NCBI GenBank assembly: GCA_017448545.1
Contig: JAFSLH010000005.1
Span: 52,627 to 116,626, forward strand
Direction of reading: 5' to 3'
Source: Clostridia bacterium
GTDB lineage: Bacteria; Bacillota; Clostridia; Christensenellales; CAG-138
DNA length: 64,000 nucleotides
Part shown: positions 6,275 through 61,752 of the stretch, piece after piece
Position numbering within the stretch: position 1 is the stretch's first letter
Layout of the letters: every line of letters starts with the position of its first letter
Notes under the pieces: generated by a model
Databases searched by the model: none
What the model saw: the letters and a program-made list of their open reading frames with translations, nothing else
What the model was told of the DNA's origin: nothing
Translations under genes and position numbers: made by a program

Positions 6275-6545
6275 GTCGCACTAAGCGGGGAGTTAGCGGT
6301 GCCCTGTACTCGCAATCCGCTATAGCGAGGCTGAACTCCCATTCCGAGGCAAACGGTTGTGAGGTCGATCCCGGCACGGAGTGTTGATCGGCGGGTCCTG
6401 TGCAATCGTGCGCTGTGAACCGTGTCAGGTCCTGACGGAAGCAGCACTAAGCAGAAAGCGCGGTGTGCCGCGGGAAAGCCTGCAAGGAGCCACCGACCGG
6501 GCCACCACTCGGAGCCGAATGTCGAAGAATGGGTGTGCGATATTG
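6275..6545 (+). ncRNA. ffs: Signal recognition particle RNA, large Bacillus/Clostridium type (scRNA)
   Basis: Contains the domain IV core GTCAGGTCCTGACGGAAGCAGCAC. The 5' TGTCGCAC pairs with the 3' GTGTGCGA. An Alu-like 5' domain (GGGGAGTTAGCGGTGCC) is present, the length is about 270 nt, and no coding signal is apparent. The ends are approximate. Confidence 0.8.
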
Positions 6546-10588: not shown

Positions 10589-10807
10589 ACTTCTCCTGTG
10601 CGGCGGCGCGGTTTTGTGCAAAGCCGCCTTTTGAAACAGTATACCACGCTGCTGCGCATCGTTCAAGATAATTCTGCCGAACCGTTCGAAATCACAATAC
10701 GACAGGCAGATTTTGTTCGTATCCTGTCGATGGATGCGGAAATTACGGCGCGTCCCGATCCCTTGATTCGCGCTTTTTGAACGGTTTCGGTTCGCTACAA
10801 TGGACGC

Positions 10808-41575: not shown

Positions 41576-43381
41576 ATGAAGAGAATCATTGCATTGCTTC
41601 TTGTGCTGTGCCTGGCAGTATCGCTCTTTGCGTGCACAACCAGCACGCCGGCCAACACGGGAACGACGACAACGACCGACACGACGAGCACGACGACGAA
41701 CTCCGGTTCCCAGTCCGCAAACGCCGGTACGACGGACAACAGCGGCAAGACCGATACGACCGAAACGACCGTGGCTGAAAAGTTTGTGGTCAATGCCTGC
41801 ATTGCGTCTGAACCTGAGACGATTGATCCGTCCACCATCAGCTCCGTAGACGGCTCGACCTACACGCAGCATCAGTTTGAGAACCTGATGAAGTATCAGA
41901 TGACCAACGATAACCCGGCGGGCGACCCGAATATGAAGTCCACTGAGATCGTGCTCGGTCAGGCCGCAGGCTATACCGTGTCCGATGACCTCACCGTCTA
42001 CACCTTCACGCTTCGTGACGACATTTTCTGGTCGGACGGCGTGCCGGTCAAGGCGCAGGATTGGGTCTATTCCTGGCAGCGCCTCGTCGATCCCGCGACC
42101 GCGTCTGACTACGGCTACTTCCTGGATAACATCGTGCTGAACGCGTATGATATCTATGAAGAAAACACCAAGGACAAGAGCGAGCTCGGCATCAAGGCGC
42201 TTGACGACAAGACGCTGGAGATCACCCTTGAAGCGCCCTGTGCGTACTTCCTCGAGATGTGCGCCTTCGCGTCCCTCGTCCCGCTCCGTCAGGATGTTGT
42301 GGAAGGCAGCGACAACTGGACCGATCCGGCGAACATCGTCGTCAACGGCGCGTACAAGCTCACCGAGTGGGTACACGACAGCTACCTGAAGATGGAAAAG
42401 AACGAAAAGTACTATGATTACGATAACCTCGGACCGGATGAGATCATCTGGTGGCTGAGCGACAGCGAGACCGCGATCTACTCCGCATATCAGTCCGGCG
42501 AGTATCAGTTCATCGAGAGCTTCCCGAGCGATCTGACCGAGACGCTGCAGGCTTCCGGCGATTGCTACATCAATCCGTACGTCGGCACCTATTATCTGTA
42601 TCTGAACTGCAGCAAGGTCACTGATTGGCGCGTCCGCGCTGCGATGGTCCTCTCCGTTGATCGTGAGAACATCGTAGACAACGTCACCCAGCAGAATCAG
42701 AGCCCGGCAACCGGTTTCGTTGCTTCCGGTATCCTCGATTCCACCGGTGCGGACTTCGCGTTCGGCGTTTCCGAGCTCGGTGCAATCTACAACACGCTTT
42801 CGACCATGTATCCGGATGCTGACCTCAGCACCTATGCGGGTCGCTGCGAGCTTGCACAGCAGCTCTATCAGGCGGCGGTTGACGACGGATCCTGGGATCC
42901 CAACACCACCGTTGTTTACAACTTCAACACGTCCGAAACCCACAAGGCGATCGCAGAAGCCTGCGGTTCCGACTGGGTGACGGTTCTCGGTCTGAAGATC
43001 TCGCTGGAGAACCAGGAATGGGCGACCTACACCAACGGACTCGGCGAGCACACGTTCGGCGTTGCGCGTCTCGGCTGGATCGCGGACTACAATGACCCGG
43101 TCACTTACCTTGAGCTGCTGGTCACCGGCAATTCTTACAACTACGGTCTGTTCAGCAATGAGGCCTACGACGCGAAAATCAACAGCGCGAAGGCGATGCT
43201 TGCGGGTGCAGAGCGTGACGCCCTGCTGTACGAAGCGGAAGAGCTGCTGTTCGGCGAAGGCGGCTTCCCGGTTTGCCCGATCTACTACTACACCAACCCC
43301 TACTGCGCACAGGGCCTGACCAATGTCGCTTACACGACGATGGGTTACTTCTTCTTCCAGTATGCGCAGCCCGCTGCGTAA
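41576..43381 (+). CDS. oppA: Peptide ABC transporter substrate-binding lipoprotein
   Basis: Lipobox LFACTT, a Thr-rich linker and a family 5 SBP body of 601 aa. An AAGGAGG RBS precedes the start. Confidence 0.9.
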   Translation: MKRIIALLLVLCLAVSLFACTTSTPANTGTTTTTDTTSTTTNSGSQSANAGTTDNSGKTDTTETTVAEKFVVNACIASEPETIDPSTISSVDGSTYTQHQFENLMKYQMTNDNPAGDPNMKSTEIVLGQAAGYTVSDDLTVYTFTLRDDIFWSDGVPVKAQDWVYSWQRLVDPATASDYGYFLDNIVLNAYDIYEENTKDKSELGIKALDDKTLEITLEAPCAYFLEMCAFASLVPLRQDVVEGSDNWTDPANIVVNGAYKLTEWVHDSYLKMEKNEKYYDYDNLGPDEIIWWLSDSETAIYSAYQSGEYQFIESFPSDLTETLQASGDCYINPYVGTYYLYLNCSKVTDWRVRAAMVLSVDRENIVDNVTQQNQSPATGFVASGILDSTGADFAFGVSELGAIYNTLSTMYPDADLSTYAGRCELAQQLYQAAVDDGSWDPNTTVVYNFNTSETHKAIAEACGSDWVTVLGLKISLENQEWATYTNGLGEHTFGVARLGWIADYNDPVTYLELLVTGNSYNYGLFSNEAYDAKINSAKAMLAGAERDALLYEAEELLFGEGGFPVCPIYYYTNPYCAQGLTNVAYTTMGYFFFQYAQPAA

Positions 43382-43395
43382 GCAACGGTAAGTAC

Positions 43396-43428
43396 CTGCT
43401 GCAAAGGCGTCAGGCTGTTTGCGGCAGA
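43396..43428 (+). repeat. Partial copy (5' arm only) of the intergenic module seen at 44706-44980 and 60519-60849
   Basis: CTGCTGCAAAGGCGTCAGGCTGTTTGCGGCAGA compares with GGCTGTTGCAAAAGGCGTCAGACCATTTGCGGCATA. As in the full copies, it lies shortly after a stop codon. Confidence 0.5.
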
Positions 43429-43521
43429 ACAGGAATGAAACCGAAAGACGGGGCTGTCTCATGCGTGAGGCAGCCTCTTCGCCGTCTGTGGCCTTTTCCG
43501 CTCGAAAGGGTTCTTAATACA

Positions 43522-43560
43522 ACGCGCCCTGCCGGATGGCAGGGCGTTGTTCGTTCTGTT
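43522..43560. terminator. Hairpin terminator between convergent oppA and the permease gene
   Basis: CGCGCCCTGCC-GGAT-GGCAGGGCG followed by a T-rich tract. Confidence 0.55.
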
Positions 43561-43561
43561 T

Positions 43562-44701
43562 TCAGAAGAAATTCCAATGCGAAAGCAGGAAGCCGGGAAT
43601 CACGACGATCAGGAAGAACGCCCAGCTGATCAGCGTAAAGACTTTGATGAACGGCTTTCCGTTGTTCGGATATTCGCGGACATAGATGCGATAGTTGATC
43701 ACCGAAGCGAGCGAGCCGATCAAAGAGCAGAGCCCGGCAGTGTCCGCGCCGTAAATCAATCCGGCAAAGTTCTCCGTGAACGGATACAGCACGATCGTTG
43801 CGGGAACGTTGGAAATAATCTGACTGAGGCCGATCGCCCACCAGTATTCGTACCCGGCGACGGCCTTTTTCAGCCAACCGGCAATCGCTTCGTTGGCGGC
43901 AATCGATGAGGAAAACACGAAGAAGCAGAAGAACGTAACGATCAGCACATAGTCCACTTTGAGAAGCAGTTTCCGGTCGAAAATCAGGATCGCTGCCAAA
44001 ACGATTCCGACGACGATATACCAATACGCGGTGCGCGTCACGATGCACGCGATGATCAGCGCAAACAGCGTCAGATAGACGATGCGCTTTGTGCGGCCTT
44101 CCTTTTCCCAGGGAACGCTTTCCGGCGCGGCGTCGATCGTTTCGCGCGGGTCTTTCCGATACAGGAACAGGATAAACACGATCAAAAGCAGGGCGGAAAT
44201 CGCCGCAAGCGGCAGCATGTGCAGCATAAAGTGCCATGCACTGACGTTTGCCTGTCCGTACAGAAACAGGTTCTGCGGGCTTCCGAACGGCATCAGAAGC
44301 GAGCCGCGGATTGCTGCAATATTCTCAAACGTCAAAACGGGCAGAATGTATTGCTCCTTGTTTCCGGCGCGGAAGAGCAGAATCGTTACCGGTACAAAAA
44401 TGATCAGCGAAACGTCGTTCGTGACGAACATCGACATAAAGAATACGCCGAACACCAGAAACAGTGTCATCAGCGTCATGCGGCGCAAGCCGGACGCAAG
44501 CCGGATCAGCGGCTGCAGAATCCGTTCCTGCTTGAAGCCCTCCAGCACACAGAGCATCATCAGCAGCGTTCCGAGCGTGCGCCAGTCGATATCGGCAAGC
44601 AGCGCCGCAGACGGCGGCGTGATCAGCAGGGACAGCAGCGCTGCCAGGACCGAGACGGTGAGCATCGGCTCCCGTTTCAAGAATGAAAGTACTTTTTTCA
44701 T
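43562..44701 (-). CDS. Anion permease (SLC13 / ArsB-NhaD / citrate transporter-like superfamily)
   Basis: About 11 TM segments and 379 aa. The ATG at 44701 sits 6 nt after a TATAAT box. The longer ORF starting at 44767 would begin inside a non-coding repeat. Confidence 0.7.
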   Translation of the reverse strand: MKKVLSFLKREPMLTVSVLAALLSLLITPPSAALLADIDWRTLGTLLMMLCVLEGFKQERILQPLIRLASGLRRMTLMTLFLVFGVFFMSMFVTNDVSLIIFVPVTILLFRAGNKEQYILPVLTFENIAAIRGSLLMPFGSPQNLFLYGQANVSAWHFMLHMLPLAAISALLLIVFILFLYRKDPRETIDAAPESVPWEKEGRTKRIVYLTLFALIIACIVTRTAYWYIVVGIVLAAILIFDRKLLLKVDYVLIVTFFCFFVFSSSIAANEAIAGWLKKAVAGYEYWWAIGLSQIISNVPATIVLYPFTENFAGLIYGADTAGLCSLIGSLASVINYRIYVREYPNNGKPFIKVFTLISWAFFLIVVIPGFLLSHWNFF

Positions 44702-44705
44702 AGGC

Positions 44706-44980
44706 GCATTATACATCGGAACCGATCGAAAGACAAGCTTTTTTGGATGAAAAGGACGTTGTCTCAAAACTCTCTAAGGTGCTATAAGGGGCTGTTGATA
44801 AGGCAGGCAGAATTCGCGTTTTCGTCCCGAAGGCTATACTGACGCTATGCCGAGGGCGAAAACGCGGATAGTTTTCGGCAAATAATCAAAAGAATGTGCG
44901 AAATTGGCGCACATTCTTCCTACCAGTATTCTTTTTTCCGGTCTGCCGAAAACGGTCTGGCGCCTTTTGCGACAGCCACC
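44706..44980 (-). repeat. Structured intergenic module, copy 1 (terminator hairpin, branched stems, outward promoter)
   Basis: Collinear with 60519-60849 when read in the direction of the flanking genes. Shared blocks are GGCTGTYGCAAAAGGCGYCAGACC, TGATTATWTGCCGMAAAYTATCCGCGTTTTCGCCC, GGGACGAAAACGCGAATTCTGMCTGCCTTATCAACAGCCCCTTA, AGAGTTTTGAGACAAC and TTTCGATCGG..TATAATGC. Confidence 0.75.
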
Positions 44981-45001
44981 CGAAACGCTTTAGGATTCGA
45001 A

Positions 45002-50523: not shown

Positions 50524-51327
50524 TTACAGAATCTGTTTTTGAAACGCATGAAATGCGTCGCGCAGCTGTGCTATATCCGTATAGGTGTCGCTGTATACTT
50601 CGATCAGCACGTCTCCGTCGAATCCTTTTGTCTGCAGACGGCGGACAAGACCTGCAAAATCGAACCCGCCGTAGGGCGGCAGCAGATAGCGCACTTTGCC
50701 GTTTTCGGTCTTGCAGTCACAGCAGTGTACCGCGTCGATTCGCTCGCCGACGGCGTCGACAAAGGAGAACGGGTCTACGCCGCTGCGGATCGCCTGCTTG
50801 ACGTCCAGCGTGAAATGCAGGCCGTCGTTCCGCATCGCATCCAAAAGTTGAAGCGCAAAGTCCGGTTCCCGGCAGAAGCACCAGCTGACGTTTTCGAGCG
50901 TCAGGCGCACGTCGTATTCGGCCGCCATTGAAACAAGCCGATCAAAGACGGGAGCGATTCGTTCGATTTCGAGGTTTTTTGCCGCGCCCGAAAGATGCGC
51001 AGCGCCGTGCATGCAGTACCGATGCGCACCGAGCCGCTTTGCGGCGACGAGCACCTTTTCGTAGATGCGGAAGGCGTCGTCGATCTGTCGCGGATGCAGC
51101 GAAAAGAGCTGCGATTCAAACATGGAGCTCATCGGATGAACGCTGGTGACCGTGACGCCCGCTTCGCGCGTTCGCTGTGCAAGGAGCGAGATGAACTCCG
51201 GCTCGTACTCACTGAGCGAATTCAGAAAATACTCCGCATAGGGGACGCCCCAATCCCGCAGGACGGCAGGGATGTCCTCCAGCATATACAGATTGTAAAA
51301 GCTTGCAGTTGAAATTCCGACTCGCAT
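50524..51327 (-). CDS. Sugar phosphate isomerase/epimerase (xylose isomerase-like TIM barrel)
   Basis: The N-terminus MRVGISTASF and an AP-endonuclease-2-like barrel pattern. The ATG is at 51327. Confidence 0.7.
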   Translation of the reverse strand: MRVGISTASFYNLYMLEDIPAVLRDWGVPYAEYFLNSLSEYEPEFISLLAQRTREAGVTVTSVHPMSSMFESQLFSLHPRQIDDAFRIYEKVLVAAKRLGAHRYCMHGAAHLSGAAKNLEIERIAPVFDRLVSMAAEYDVRLTLENVSWCFCREPDFALQLLDAMRNDGLHFTLDVKQAIRSGVDPFSFVDAVGERIDAVHCCDCKTENGKVRYLLPPYGGFDFAGLVRRLQTKGFDGDVLIEVYSDTYTDIAQLRDAFHAFQKQIL

Positions 51328-59180: not shown

Positions 59181-60500
59181 ATGCCCACAAAGGATAGAGA
59201 TAATTTCGATAAAGTGTGTTGCAGCTTTTGCGGCAAGCGGCGCGGTCAGGTTCGAAAGCTGATTGCTGGACCTAACGCCTACATCTGCAACGAGTGCGTC
59301 GAATTGTGCCGGGAACTGGTGCGGGAGGATATGCGGTTTGCAGAACCGACCGAAGAGTTCGACGCGCCGACCGTTGCGGATATCCCGAAGCCGGCGCAGA
59401 TTGTCGCCGCGCTGGACGACTATGTGATCGGACAGTATGCCGCAAAGCGCGCGCTGTCGGTCGCCGTTTACAATCATTATAAGCGCGTACGCCTGCAGAA
59501 GAAGGACGACGACGTCGAGCTGCAAAAGAGCAATATCATCATGCTCGGGCCGACCGGCTGCGGAAAGACGCTGCTGGCGCAAACGCTTGCCAAGGTGCTT
59601 GACGTGCCGTTTGCCGTTGCGGACGCGACGGCCCTGACCGAAGCCGGCTATGTCGGCGACGACGTGGAAAACATTCTGCTCAAGCTGATCCAGGCTGCGG
59701 ACTTCGATATTCATCGGGCGGAGCGCGGGATCGTCTATATCGACGAGATCGACAAAATCGCGCGCAAGGGCGAAAACGTTTCGATTACACGCGACGTTTC
59801 GGGCGAAGGCGTGCAGCAGGCACTTCTGAAGATTCTCGAAGGCACGGTCGCAAATGTCCCGCCGCAGGGCGGACGGAAGCATCCGCAGCAGGAATGTCTG
59901 CAGATCGACACGACGAACATTCTGTTCATCGTCGGCGGCGCGTTCACCGGCATCGACAAGATCATCGAACGCCGCACCGGCAATAAGATGATGGGCTTCG
60001 GCGCAGACATCAAGTCGACCGAAGAGAAGGATATCGGATCCGTTCTGCGCGGCATTCTGCCCGAAGACCTGTTGAAGTTCGGTCTGATTCCGGAATTCGT
60101 CGGCCGCGTCCCGGTAATCGTCACGCTCGACAGTCTGGATGAAACAGCGCTGATCAAGATTCTGACGGAGCCGAAGAACGCCCTGACGCGCCAGTATCAG
60201 CGCCTGTTCGAGATGGACGGCGTGAATCTGGTTGTGACCGACGACGCGCTGCACGAGGTCGCGAAGAAAGCAATCGAGCGCAAGACCGGCGCGAGAGGTC
60301 TGCGCGCCATCATGGAAGACGTCATGCTGGATATCATGTATGACATTCCCTCGATGGACGGCGTGAAAACTTGCGAGATCACGGGCGATACAATCCGGAA
60401 GTCCGGCCCGCCGCGGTTTATCCGCAGCGATTCGGTACAGCCGGCGGCGCTTCCCGCGACGCGCAAACGCAAAACGACACAGGCAAAAAAAGCGGAATAA
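59181..60500 (+). CDS. clpX: ATP-dependent Clp protease ATP-binding subunit ClpX
   Basis: Zinc ribbon CSFCGK-CNEC, Walker A GPTGCGKT and IGFG-like GFGA. The ATG at 59181 follows GAGGAG. Confidence 0.97.
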
Positions 60501-60518
60501 CCCATTCCGATCCGTTCC

Positions 60519-60849
60519 AGGGCTGTTGCAAAAGGCGTCAGACCATTTGCGGCATATTGGAATTGTTTTAACTTGTATGTAGAAAAGGCGGAAAAAATCC
60601 ACCTTTTCTCTGATTATATGCCGCAAATTATCCGCGTTTTCGCCCTACAAAATTCCGTGCGCTCGCAGTGCGAGATGCAGCACGGGATTTTGATATCCGC
60701 TGTCAGTACAGCCTTCGGGACGAAAACGCGAATTCTGACTGCCTTATCAACAGCCCCTTACAACGCTCAAAGAGTTTTGAGACAACACCTTTGCTTTTGA
60801 AAATTGCATAGTTTTGCTTTACTTTTTCGATCGGATTCGGTATAATGCA
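60519..60849 (+). repeat. Structured intergenic module, copy 2 (with an extra nested hairpin)
   Basis: It has the same ordered blocks as 44706-44980 read on the minus strand. It also carries a ~46-nt hairpin insertion (AAAATTCCGTGC...GCACGGGATTTT) in one loop, and ends in TTTCGATCGGATTCGGTATAATGC. Confidence 0.75.
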
Positions 60850-61026: not shown

Positions 61027-61752
61027 ATGGAGCAGAAAACGTATCAGCCGCTGGATCAAAGGGCGCTGTTTTCAACGCCGTTTCATCGGGACTATTGGCG
61101 ACTGGCGGCGAGGGAGGTAAAGTCCCTTCGCGTTTTGATTCTCGCCGCGCTGCTGACTGCGCTTCGAATTGCAATCAAGTCCGTCAAAATACCGCTCGCA
61201 GCCGATCTTTACATCACATTCGGATTTATGGTCAATGCGGCCGGCTCGATGATCTACGGGCCGATCGTCGCAATCCTTGCTTCTGCCGTCAGCGATACGG
61301 TCGGCGCGCTGCTGTTTCCGACAGGAACATATTTTCTCCCGTTTCTGTTGGAAGAGATCGCAGGCGGTGTGATTTTCGCGCTGTTTTATTATCGGGCGCG
61401 GCTTACGACGCAGCGGGTTTTGCTCGGACGGCTTGCCGTAACGGTCGTTTGCAACCTGATCCTGAATCCGCTGTTCATGATGTGGTATTACGCGCTGTAT
61501 ATGGGAAAGGCATACACGTTCATGACGTGGCCGCGCCTTGCAAAGAATATCGCGCTGTTCCCGGTGCAGACCGTAATTCTGGTTCTGCTGTTCCGTTTGC
61601 TGCTCCCGATTACAAACCGTCTGAAAGTGACCTATGCGCCTGCCGACGAATTGAAGATTCGCAAAAAAGACGTGGTTTCGTTGATTGTGCTTACCGTCGG
61701 CGCAGCTGCAATTGTCATATTGTATTTCTTCTTTGTCTATAAGAATAAGTGA
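61027..61752 (+). CDS. folT: Folate-family ECF transporter S component
   Basis: Six-TM S-component pattern, length 241 aa, and a THF riboswitch directly upstream. The ATG follows GAAGGAGG. Confidence 0.8.
   Translation: MEQKTYQPLDQRALFSTPFHRDYWRLAAREVKSLRVLILAALLTALRIAIKSVKIPLAADLYITFGFMVNAAGSMIYGPIVAILASAVSDTVGALLFPTGTYFLPFLLEEIAGGVIFALFYYRARLTTQRVLLGRLAVTVVCNLILNPLFMMWYYALYMGKAYTFMTWPRLAKNIALFPVQTVILVLLFRLLLPITNRLKVTYAPADELKIRKKDVVSLIVLTVGAAAIVILYFFFVYKNK

Follow-up and report, generated by a model that had tools for sequence, protein, structure and literature searches.

What is a large, branched and strongly folding segment doing in two separate intergenic spacers of one bacterial genome? 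The question is raised by a stretch of 64,000 nt from contig JAFSLH010000005.1 of a Clostridia bacterium (hereafter the window), in which a segment downstream of a uracil/xanthine permease gene recurs downstream of clpX. A reading made from the letters alone (the sequence-only reading) had described the two as copies of one structured module and had offered two explanations: an RNA element, such as a 3′ untranslated region (3′-UTR) or insulator-type element or a small RNA (sRNA), or a palindromic mobile module acting at the DNA level. Here we find that the segment is a repeat with defined limits, that it is absent from the same spacers of close relatives, and that it lies inside native terminators. 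It is probably a low-copy, lineage-restricted, palindromic and non-coding repeat of about 220-270 nt, resembling SPRITEs and MITEs (miniature transposable elements with inverted repeats), that replaces the native terminators of its host. Its distribution is confined to a single lineage of uncultured Oscillospiraceae from rumen or gut; the proteins encoded beside it suggest hosts among uncultured Oscillospiraceae/Clostridia, and the names of the samples hint at rumen or gut.

The repeat and its limits

Read on the minus strand, positions 44990-44743 of the window are collinear with positions 60510-60805 of the plus strand. A blastn comparison within the window resolves this similarity into a 3′ block of 86 nt (91% identity, E=1.4e-28) and a 5′ portion of 126 nt (72% identity, E=2.3e-13), and a conserved 21-mer, GGGACGAAAACGCGAATTCTG, occurs exactly twice against an expectation of 0. 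The two collinear copies of the sequence-only reading are thus confirmed, but their outer parts (44706-44757 and 60787-60849) are native flank carrying promoters. As delimited here, copy 1 (c1) spans 44758-44977 on the minus strand (220 nt; nhmmer E=1.1e-80), its right limit being taken from the alignment of its flank to the empty site of a sister species, L004. Copy 2 (c2) spans 60520-60786 on the plus strand (267 nt; nhmmer E=1.3e-76), with both limits taken from alignment to the empty sites of L021 and L026. The unit ends with GAGACAAC (at 44758 in c1 and 60786 in c2), and we set the right limit there because the flanks beyond it align to empty sites. Its two ends read GGGCTGTTGCAAAAGGCG... 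and ...GAGTTTTGAGACAAC, and its GC content is 46-48%, against 56% for the window.

Both copies follow closely upon a gene, as had been noted (about 25 nt past a stop codon). The first lies between a Xan_ur_permease gene (uracil/xanthine permease; stop codon 45004-45002) and a CitMHS-type permease gene (ATG at 44701), and begins 24 nt past the former's stop codon; the name pyrP given earlier to the Xan_ur_permease gene is reasonable, because a phosphoribosyltransferase gene precedes it. The second begins about 20 nt past the stop codon of clpX (60498-60500), and on its other side are the native folT promoter and a tetrahydrofolate (THF) riboswitch. A third copy (c3) was found in a metagenome of the Joint Genome Institute (JGI), at L015:1252-1470, where it begins 6 nt past the stop codon of a gene for a helix-turn-helix (HTH) protein of 78 amino acids, in sense orientation. 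The genes upstream of the three copies (permease, clpX, HTH gene) are unrelated, yet every copy lies sense to its upstream gene and starts 6-24 nt past the stop codon. The third copy combines features of the other two: it resembles c1 in part of its 5′ region and in its short P3 stem, has the P2 stem of c2, and matches c2 exactly over its 3′-terminal 77 nt. Such a mosaic indicates exchange between copies.

The window also holds a 41-nt fragment at 43396-43436 on the plus strand that resembles the left end of the repeat (the 5′ arms of P1 and P2; blastn E=0.003-0.016, nhmmer E=0.0016). It begins about 13-15 nt past the stop codon of an SBP_bac_5 gene (41576-43381, plus strand), again in sense orientation. 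Its fold is unlike that of the full element, and unrelated hairpins and a bidirectional terminator (43524-43547) follow it. The fragment could be what remains of a decayed copy, or else a solo end.

Empty orthologous sites and the point of insertion

The mobile module at the DNA level that the sequence-only reading had entertained is supported by empty orthologous sites, by occurrence at three unrelated loci, by assembly breaks and by AT-richness. In the sister species L004, whose CitMHS-type protein is 87% identical, the spacer between the permease and CitMHS-type genes is 113 nt long and lacks the element; it contains a plain terminator, a promoter and a Shine-Dalgarno leader. Likewise, the clpX-folT spacer of L021, L024, L025 and L026 (FolT 83-84% identical) is without the element and measures 256-258 nt, compared with 526 nt in the window, its components being a terminator, a promoter and the THF riboswitch. 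The element is also missing from L063 at the third locus, where the nucleotide identity to L015 is 96.7% as far as ATAATGCAG. The junction there reads ATAATGCAG followed by GGGTTG when filled and ATAATGCAG followed by CACAGC when empty: past it, L015 and L062 continue with GGGTTGTTGC..., whereas L063 runs from CACAGC... into a small hairpin and a convergent gene. The relatives L064-L067 (90-92% identical) are also empty at this locus.

To place the insertion points, we excised the element in silico, aligned what was left of each flank with the corresponding empty site and compared the scores with those of 1000 shuffles. The right flank of c1 (44757-44702) is collinear with L004 from the U tract of the terminator through the promoter, and the joined flanks of c2 align to L026; in each case 0 of 1000 shuffles reached the score. 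Both copies sit between the 5′ arm or loop of the native terminator on one side and its 3′ arm and U tract on the other. The junction of c3 falls in the 5′ arm of a native hairpin. The left flanks of the three copies end in GGGT, CCAG and GCAG.

Independent assemblies also break at the element. In four of them, all of the window's species, contigs begin within c2 (at 60652, 60732, 60757 and 60764), the Logan contig L062 stops 27 nt into c3, and the contigs bearing the HTH gene of the third locus are all at most 3.3 kb long. Assemblers that are unable to span a genomic repeat usually leave breaks of this kind. At another place in the window, two contigs of assembly ERZ28018901 (k141_690034 and k141_302387) both seem to end at about 50600-50613, in a short gap between two open reading frames (ORFs); these ends were derived by coordinate arithmetic.

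The fold and its terminator-like hairpin

All copies have the same architecture: a stem P1 encloses P2, which is tipped by the hairpin P2a, and P3, and a small hairpin, P4, lies in the tail. The first four of these had been proposed from the sequence, and independent minimum free energy (MFE) folds reproduced them all, with z-scores of -6.2 (c1), -11.7 (c2) and -6.5 (c3); P4 is added here as a fifth. RNAalifold on the three copies returned the same architecture as the MFE folds. The sense and antisense strands fold equally well. The arms of P1 are 22 nt long and imperfectly complementary, and the left arm is terminal at the junction.

In c1 (minus strand), the 5′ arm of P1, GGCTGTCGCAAAAGGCGCCAGA (44956-44977), pairs with TCTGCCTGCCTTATCAACAGCC (44790-44811), as seen in the MFE fold and the alignment and, for the 5′ arm, in RNAalifold. 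The MFE fold and alignment likewise pair GTTTTCGGCAGA (44942-44953) with TTTGCCGAAAAC (44871-44882) to form P2, and CGCGTTTTCGCCC (44854-44866) with GGGACGAAAACGCG (44815-44828) to form P3. P2a (44888-44920), detected by a terminator scan, is a 13-pair hairpin of the intrinsic-terminator type followed by the tail GATTATTT (z=-4.4). P4 (44763-44778; fold, alignment and RNAalifold) reads CUUAGA-GAGU-UUUGAG; two of its pairs are G.U, against C-G and A-U in c2 and c3.

In c2 (plus strand), the MFE fold and alignment give P1 as 60521-60542 paired with 60734-60755, P2 as ATTTGCGGCATA (60545-60556) paired with TATGCCGCAAAT (60617-60628), and P3 as 60633-60645 paired with 60717-60730. Its P2a (60581-60609) reads AGAAAAGGCGGA-AAAAA-TCCACCTTTTCT and folds into the shape of a terminator with a weak U tract (z=-3.2); its P4 (60766-60781; fold and RNAalifold) is CUCAAA-GAGU-UUUGAG. 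Sequence comparison and folding show that the loop of P3 in c2, and not in c1 or c3, carries a near-perfect nested hairpin of 45 nt (60648-60692), to which no similar sequence was found elsewhere in the window.

The top of the P2a hairpin contains GC, its 5′ side is rich in A and its 3′ side in U. As the sequence-only reading had observed for two copies, its sequence varies while its place in the fold is kept; this is true of all three, no two of which share the same P2a. Its likeness to a terminator is borne out: the scan for terminators picks out P2a in c1 and in c3 (in c3 at 1312-1337, with 10 pairs, ending in TTTTTT and followed by CTTGATTATT), but not in c2, where the likeness is weaker. 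In c1 and c3, P2a is thus a predicted intrinsic terminator, with a GC hairpin, a direct U tract, sense orientation and a position 3′ of a gene. We considered whether P2a is simply the native terminator of each locus and rejected this, as the native hairpins at the empty sites have other sequences.

These observations lead us to propose how the repeat spreads and why it looks as it does. A new copy would land in the intrinsic-terminator hairpin just 3′ of a gene, destroying the native hairpin and substituting its own P2a. Either the repeat inserts into terminator hairpins or it would be tolerated only there, and only insertions sense to the upstream gene would supply a working terminator. We propose that selection for termination accounts for the fixed orientation, for the position just past stop codons and for the retention of P2a despite changes in its sequence. 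P1, P2 and P3 are nested inverted repeats, most likely needed for, or left from, propagation at the DNA level. We disfavor a role for them at the RNA level, because the middle of the fold is occupied by the terminator and because the element is missing from orthologous loci.

Covariation and the possibility of a structured RNA

Pair counts on the three-copy alignment covered 60 pairs, with 97% of the cells paired. The compensatory changes that had been reported in P2 are real: 3 of its 12 pairs differ on both sides between c1 and c2/c3 (A-U/G-C, G-C/U-A and G.U/U-A). RNAalifold identifies four further two-sided changes in P2a. In P1, 17 of 20 pairs are invariant, one changes from C-G to U.G and two are broken; P3 is invariant in 13/13 pairs; and P4 shows two one-sided changes to G.U, both in c1. 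Being near-invariant, P1 and P3 say nothing for or against selection on structure. Further, P1 contains both sense-strand G.U pairs (c3) and C.A mismatches (c1 and c3), giving no clear strand signal. The covariation term of RNAalifold was -0.99 kcal/mol, and 17 of 500 column shuffles reached the observed covariation score with n=3. The two-sided changes are confined to P2 and P2a and amount essentially to one contrast, that of c1 with c2/c3; with three sequences and a single contrast, the covariation is no more than suggestive. Selection on the structure, as the sequence-only reading had it, is therefore weakly supported, all the more since both strands fold equally. Template-switch “correction” of quasi-palindromes yields apparently compensatory changes without selection. 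The pairing of P1, P2 and P3 could be kept by such correction, or it could matter for propagation at the DNA level.

Could the element nevertheless be a functional structured RNA (a 3′-UTR element, an insulator or an sRNA) whose P1/P2/P3 three-way junction is kept by selection on RNA structure? The very stable fold common to the three copies is what such an RNA would have, and the pairing preserved through the two-sided changes in P2 and P2a, the one-sided changes that give G.U on the sense strand (in P1 of c3 and twice in P4 of c1) and the fixed orientation with respect to the upstream gene all point the same way. Yet sister species, and a near-identical strain, lack the element in the corresponding spacers, which means that it is no conserved regulator of these genes. 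Moreover, the terminator-like hairpin stands mid-element, and a transcript terminated there would be without the 3′ arms of P2 and P1 and the whole of P3. Folding of the antisense strand is as good as, or slightly better than, that of the sense strand, the C.A mismatches in P1 of c1 and c3 would be G.U pairs on the antisense strand, 17 of 500 shuffles reach the covariation score with three sequences, and Rfam provides no family match. A structured RNA is thus not established, and we regard this explanation as unlikely.

Searches for further copies and for known families

The search for additional copies, which the sequence-only reading had advised, was productive to the extent of one further full copy, c3; none beyond the three was found in the searches run. 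That copy came from a metagenome scan with CTGCCTTATCAACAGCCCC, which returned 13 loci, of which 12 were chance matches and one (L015) was real. Three viral scans produced chance matches only, and blastn of c2 against plasmid and phage collections gave no match. No additional full copy was detected when a profile built from the three copies was run with nhmmer on the window, a 10-kb stretch beyond it and every locus fetched. Near-matches to the 5′ arm of P1 at 10625, 10929, 30151, 35238 and 53053 are not copies; none was recovered by this profile, and those at 10625, 10929 and 35238, read directly, have unrelated sequence around them.

The earlier failure to recognize a known RNA family was borne out. 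At the gathering threshold, Rfam 15 found only the signal recognition particle (SRP) RNA and the THF riboswitch in the whole window and no family on the element. In E-value mode, the best matches on the two copies scored 10-17 bits (E at least 0.12) and included no intron or other ribozyme.

Nor does the element appear to encode a protein. Reading the sequences directly, we found no frame conserved among the three copies: a 60-codon frame that is open in c2 is closed by a stop codon in c1 and shifted in c3. Additional copies were also sought through a 33-residue peptide from a spurious antisense ORF over the element, which among 1.84 billion proteins matched nothing but this locus itself and a repeat protein that is unrelated. 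The possibilities of an integron attC site, a retron, a group II intron or an omega or bridge RNA find no support, as there are no arrays, no Rfam match, and no adjacent reverse transcriptase, integrase, TnpB or IS110 genes among the gene calls.

Points that weigh against the proposal, and other explanations

Several observations weigh against a mobile repeat that replaces terminators. No direct repeat of at least 6 nt flanks c1 or c2, so neither shows a target-site duplication. An 8-nt ATGCAGGG does flank c3 on both sides; it may be there by chance, and the sequence after it does not continue as in the empty site. The right flank of the third locus is not collinear with the empty site. With 3 full copies collected, two of them in about 74 kb, the apparent copy number is low, and a scan of genome contigs with the 19-mer GGGACGAAAACGCGAATTC revealed no true copy, its single hit being a chance match in a coding region of Verrucomicrobia. 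The gene calls place no transposase, recombinase or insertion sequence (IS) gene beside any copy, and the searches run turned up no IS end that matches the element. A conserved tail of about 30 nt follows the right arm of P1, so that P1 is no textbook terminal inverted repeat. Finally, termination does not explain the compensatory changes in P2. As to a parent IS, the ends of the ISAs1 family begin CAGGG, and c2 and c3 read CAG/GG... at their left junctions, which may be a lead.

To the right of c3 (L015 1476-1694) we note a promoter, TTGCCG-17-TATACT, and the start of a new gene (MRSLCGGWEF...), while the counterpart in L063 (361-480) is unrelated and comprises the hairpin and a convergent gene for a protein of 131 amino acids. 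A rearrangement or larger insertion accompanies the repeat at this locus.

Some of these points would be natural if the element were not mobile at all, and an intergenic segment had instead been copied on one or two occasions, through illegitimate recombination or through gene conversion, its palindromic shape being incidental. The small number of copies, the lack of target-site duplications, the recombination between copies that the c3 mosaic records and the rearranged right flank of c3 would all be accommodated. What such copying would hardly produce is a segment whose left limit, and likewise whose right limit, GAGACAAC, is shared by three or four independent loci, every copy inside a terminator hairpin and in the same orientation. 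The flanks were not co-duplicated either, the promoters being native to each locus, and the assembly breaks in several samples suggest that additional copies exist. We therefore hold this explanation to be improbable, and we infer that the repeat is, or has been, mobile.

A bolder version of our proposal is a mobile “terminator cassette” that is specific for intrinsic-terminator hairpins, inserts in a fixed orientation and replaces the terminator of the host, with P1-P3 forming a clamp that works at the RNA level in read-through transcripts. Insulation, processing and the blocking of exonucleases are examples of what the clamp could do, and the whole could be a non-autonomous, hairpin-targeted element with a host-compatible function. 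We give this version only a slim chance of being correct. Least credible of all, and in our estimation very doubtful, is that the repeat forms one end of a mobile element of larger size or of a recombination hotspot, and the window copies solo ends left after deletion: the promoter and new gene start beside c3, unrelated to the empty-site flank, and the solo left-end fragment at 43396-43436 would fit, but c1 and c2 are simple insertions with both flanks collinear with empty sites, and no recombinase or transposase gene was called beside any copy.

Relation to known repeats

The closest analogue of the repeat appears to be SPRITE of Streptococcus pneumoniae, likened here by description, with size, GC content and architecture differing. 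SPRITE is a single 18-bp duplex with a U tract and AAAA/TTTT ends, present in about 30 copies in the genome examined (PMC3049150). Like it, our element is a small, non-coding repeat of Firmicutes found in one species group and AT-richer than the genome; it places a terminator-like stem and U-rich tract close to the 3′ ends of coding sequences; and it has neither a recognizable cognate IS nor a demonstrable target-site duplication (PMC3049150). Unlike SPRITE, it is 3-4 times larger, branched (P1 around P2/P2a and P3, plus P4) and bounded by a 22-nt outer inverted repeat, it is placed inside native terminator hairpins, and it is low-copy so far.

There are also similarities to the prokaryotic MITEs, such as Correia/NEMIS, RUP and QMITE, which are under 500 bp, non-coding, intergenic and AT-richer than the genome, have inverted repeats whose transcripts fold very stably, and vary in presence among related genomes (PMC10969869). 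The present element shares these features: it is 220-267 nt of non-coding sequence, dispersed over three loci and a fragment, and polymorphic between filled and empty sites. It differs from MITEs in lacking a target-site duplication, in the conserved 30-nt tail after its right inverted-repeat arm, in having no known parent IS and in an orientation tied to the upstream gene. Target-site duplications of MITEs fade with age (PMC10969869). We do not file the element as a MITE sensu stricto, because the target-site duplication is missing and the terminal inverted repeat is present by half. Rather, it is a new addition to the broader class of small palindromic interspersed repeats.

Insertion into hairpins is familiar from other elements: IS1397 and ISKpn1 enter the loops of REP sequences, members of the IS110 family insert into REP, and class C group II introns settle by terminators. 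As with these, our element lies in or next to palindromic or terminator hairpins in an orientation fixed relative to the hairpin; those elements, however, are autonomous with an enzyme of their own or are ribozymes of at least 600 nt, while ours encodes nothing. PATE elements, which derive from IS200/IS605, have a constant tetra- or pentanucleotide target at the left end and an orientation tied to the direction of replication. The repeat is not of that kind, as its left flanks differ and as c1 and c2 have opposite orientations 16 kb apart, each following its gene. REP/BIME sequences are GC-rich palindromes of 20-40 nt at high copy number, and an assignment to them was rejected for a branched element of 220-267 nt with 46-48% GC and two copies in about 74 kb.

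If the favored reading, a terminator-replacing mobile repeat, is right, the element would be one more family of small interspersed repeats, in a group of rumen Clostridia that has been little studied. Its filled and empty sites show cleanly how a repeat takes the place of native terminators, and this at housekeeping genes, clpX and that of a pyrimidine permease among them; it is a small case of terminator turnover. For annotation, it is useful to know that such elements break assemblies and can pass for regulatory RNAs. The element would matter more if its insertion were targeted to terminator hairpins or if the P1-P3 fold had an RNA function.

Flanking promoters and neighboring features

The promoters beside the two window copies, once counted as part of the module, belong to their loci, where they align with those of relatives with empty sites. 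The sigma-70-type promoter of the CitMHS-type gene (44708-44736, minus strand; TTGTCT-17-TATAAT) was found by promoter prediction and by alignment to L004, and the folT promoter (60818-60846, plus strand; TTTACT-17-TATAAT) is conserved in L021 and L026, which are without the element. We also considered that c1 might carry a folT promoter transduced from the other locus, and rejected this because the native CitMHS promoter of L004 gives an equally good, and collinear, alignment with the right flank of c1. The spacers of the two native promoters have a 10-mer in common, TTTCGATCGG (44721-44730, minus strand, and 60825-60834, plus strand), although the genes are unrelated; in relatives, the folT promoter has CGACCGATTCGG or TCGACAGAATCGG in its place. 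The 10-mer could be a shared operator or a chance match.

The CitMHS-type gene looks leaderless (44701-44716, minus strand), with 6 nt (GCGCCT) between TATAAT and the ATG of MKKVLSF. No Shine-Dalgarno sequence precedes the ATG at 44701, whereas L004 has a 19-nt leader with GAGG; gene callers start the gene 15 nt upstream, at an ATG overlapping the -10 box. On the other side of c2, the THF riboswitch (RF01831; 60854-60965, plus strand; 73 bits) starts exactly 7 nt past the folT promoter's -10 box (60841-60846) and precedes a gene for a folate-family energy-coupling factor (ECF) S component (ATG at 61027). The promoter and riboswitch are retained in the repeat-free relatives. Far from the repeat, the window encodes a bacterial large SRP RNA (RF01854) at 6276-6540 on the plus strand, with a score of 195 bits.

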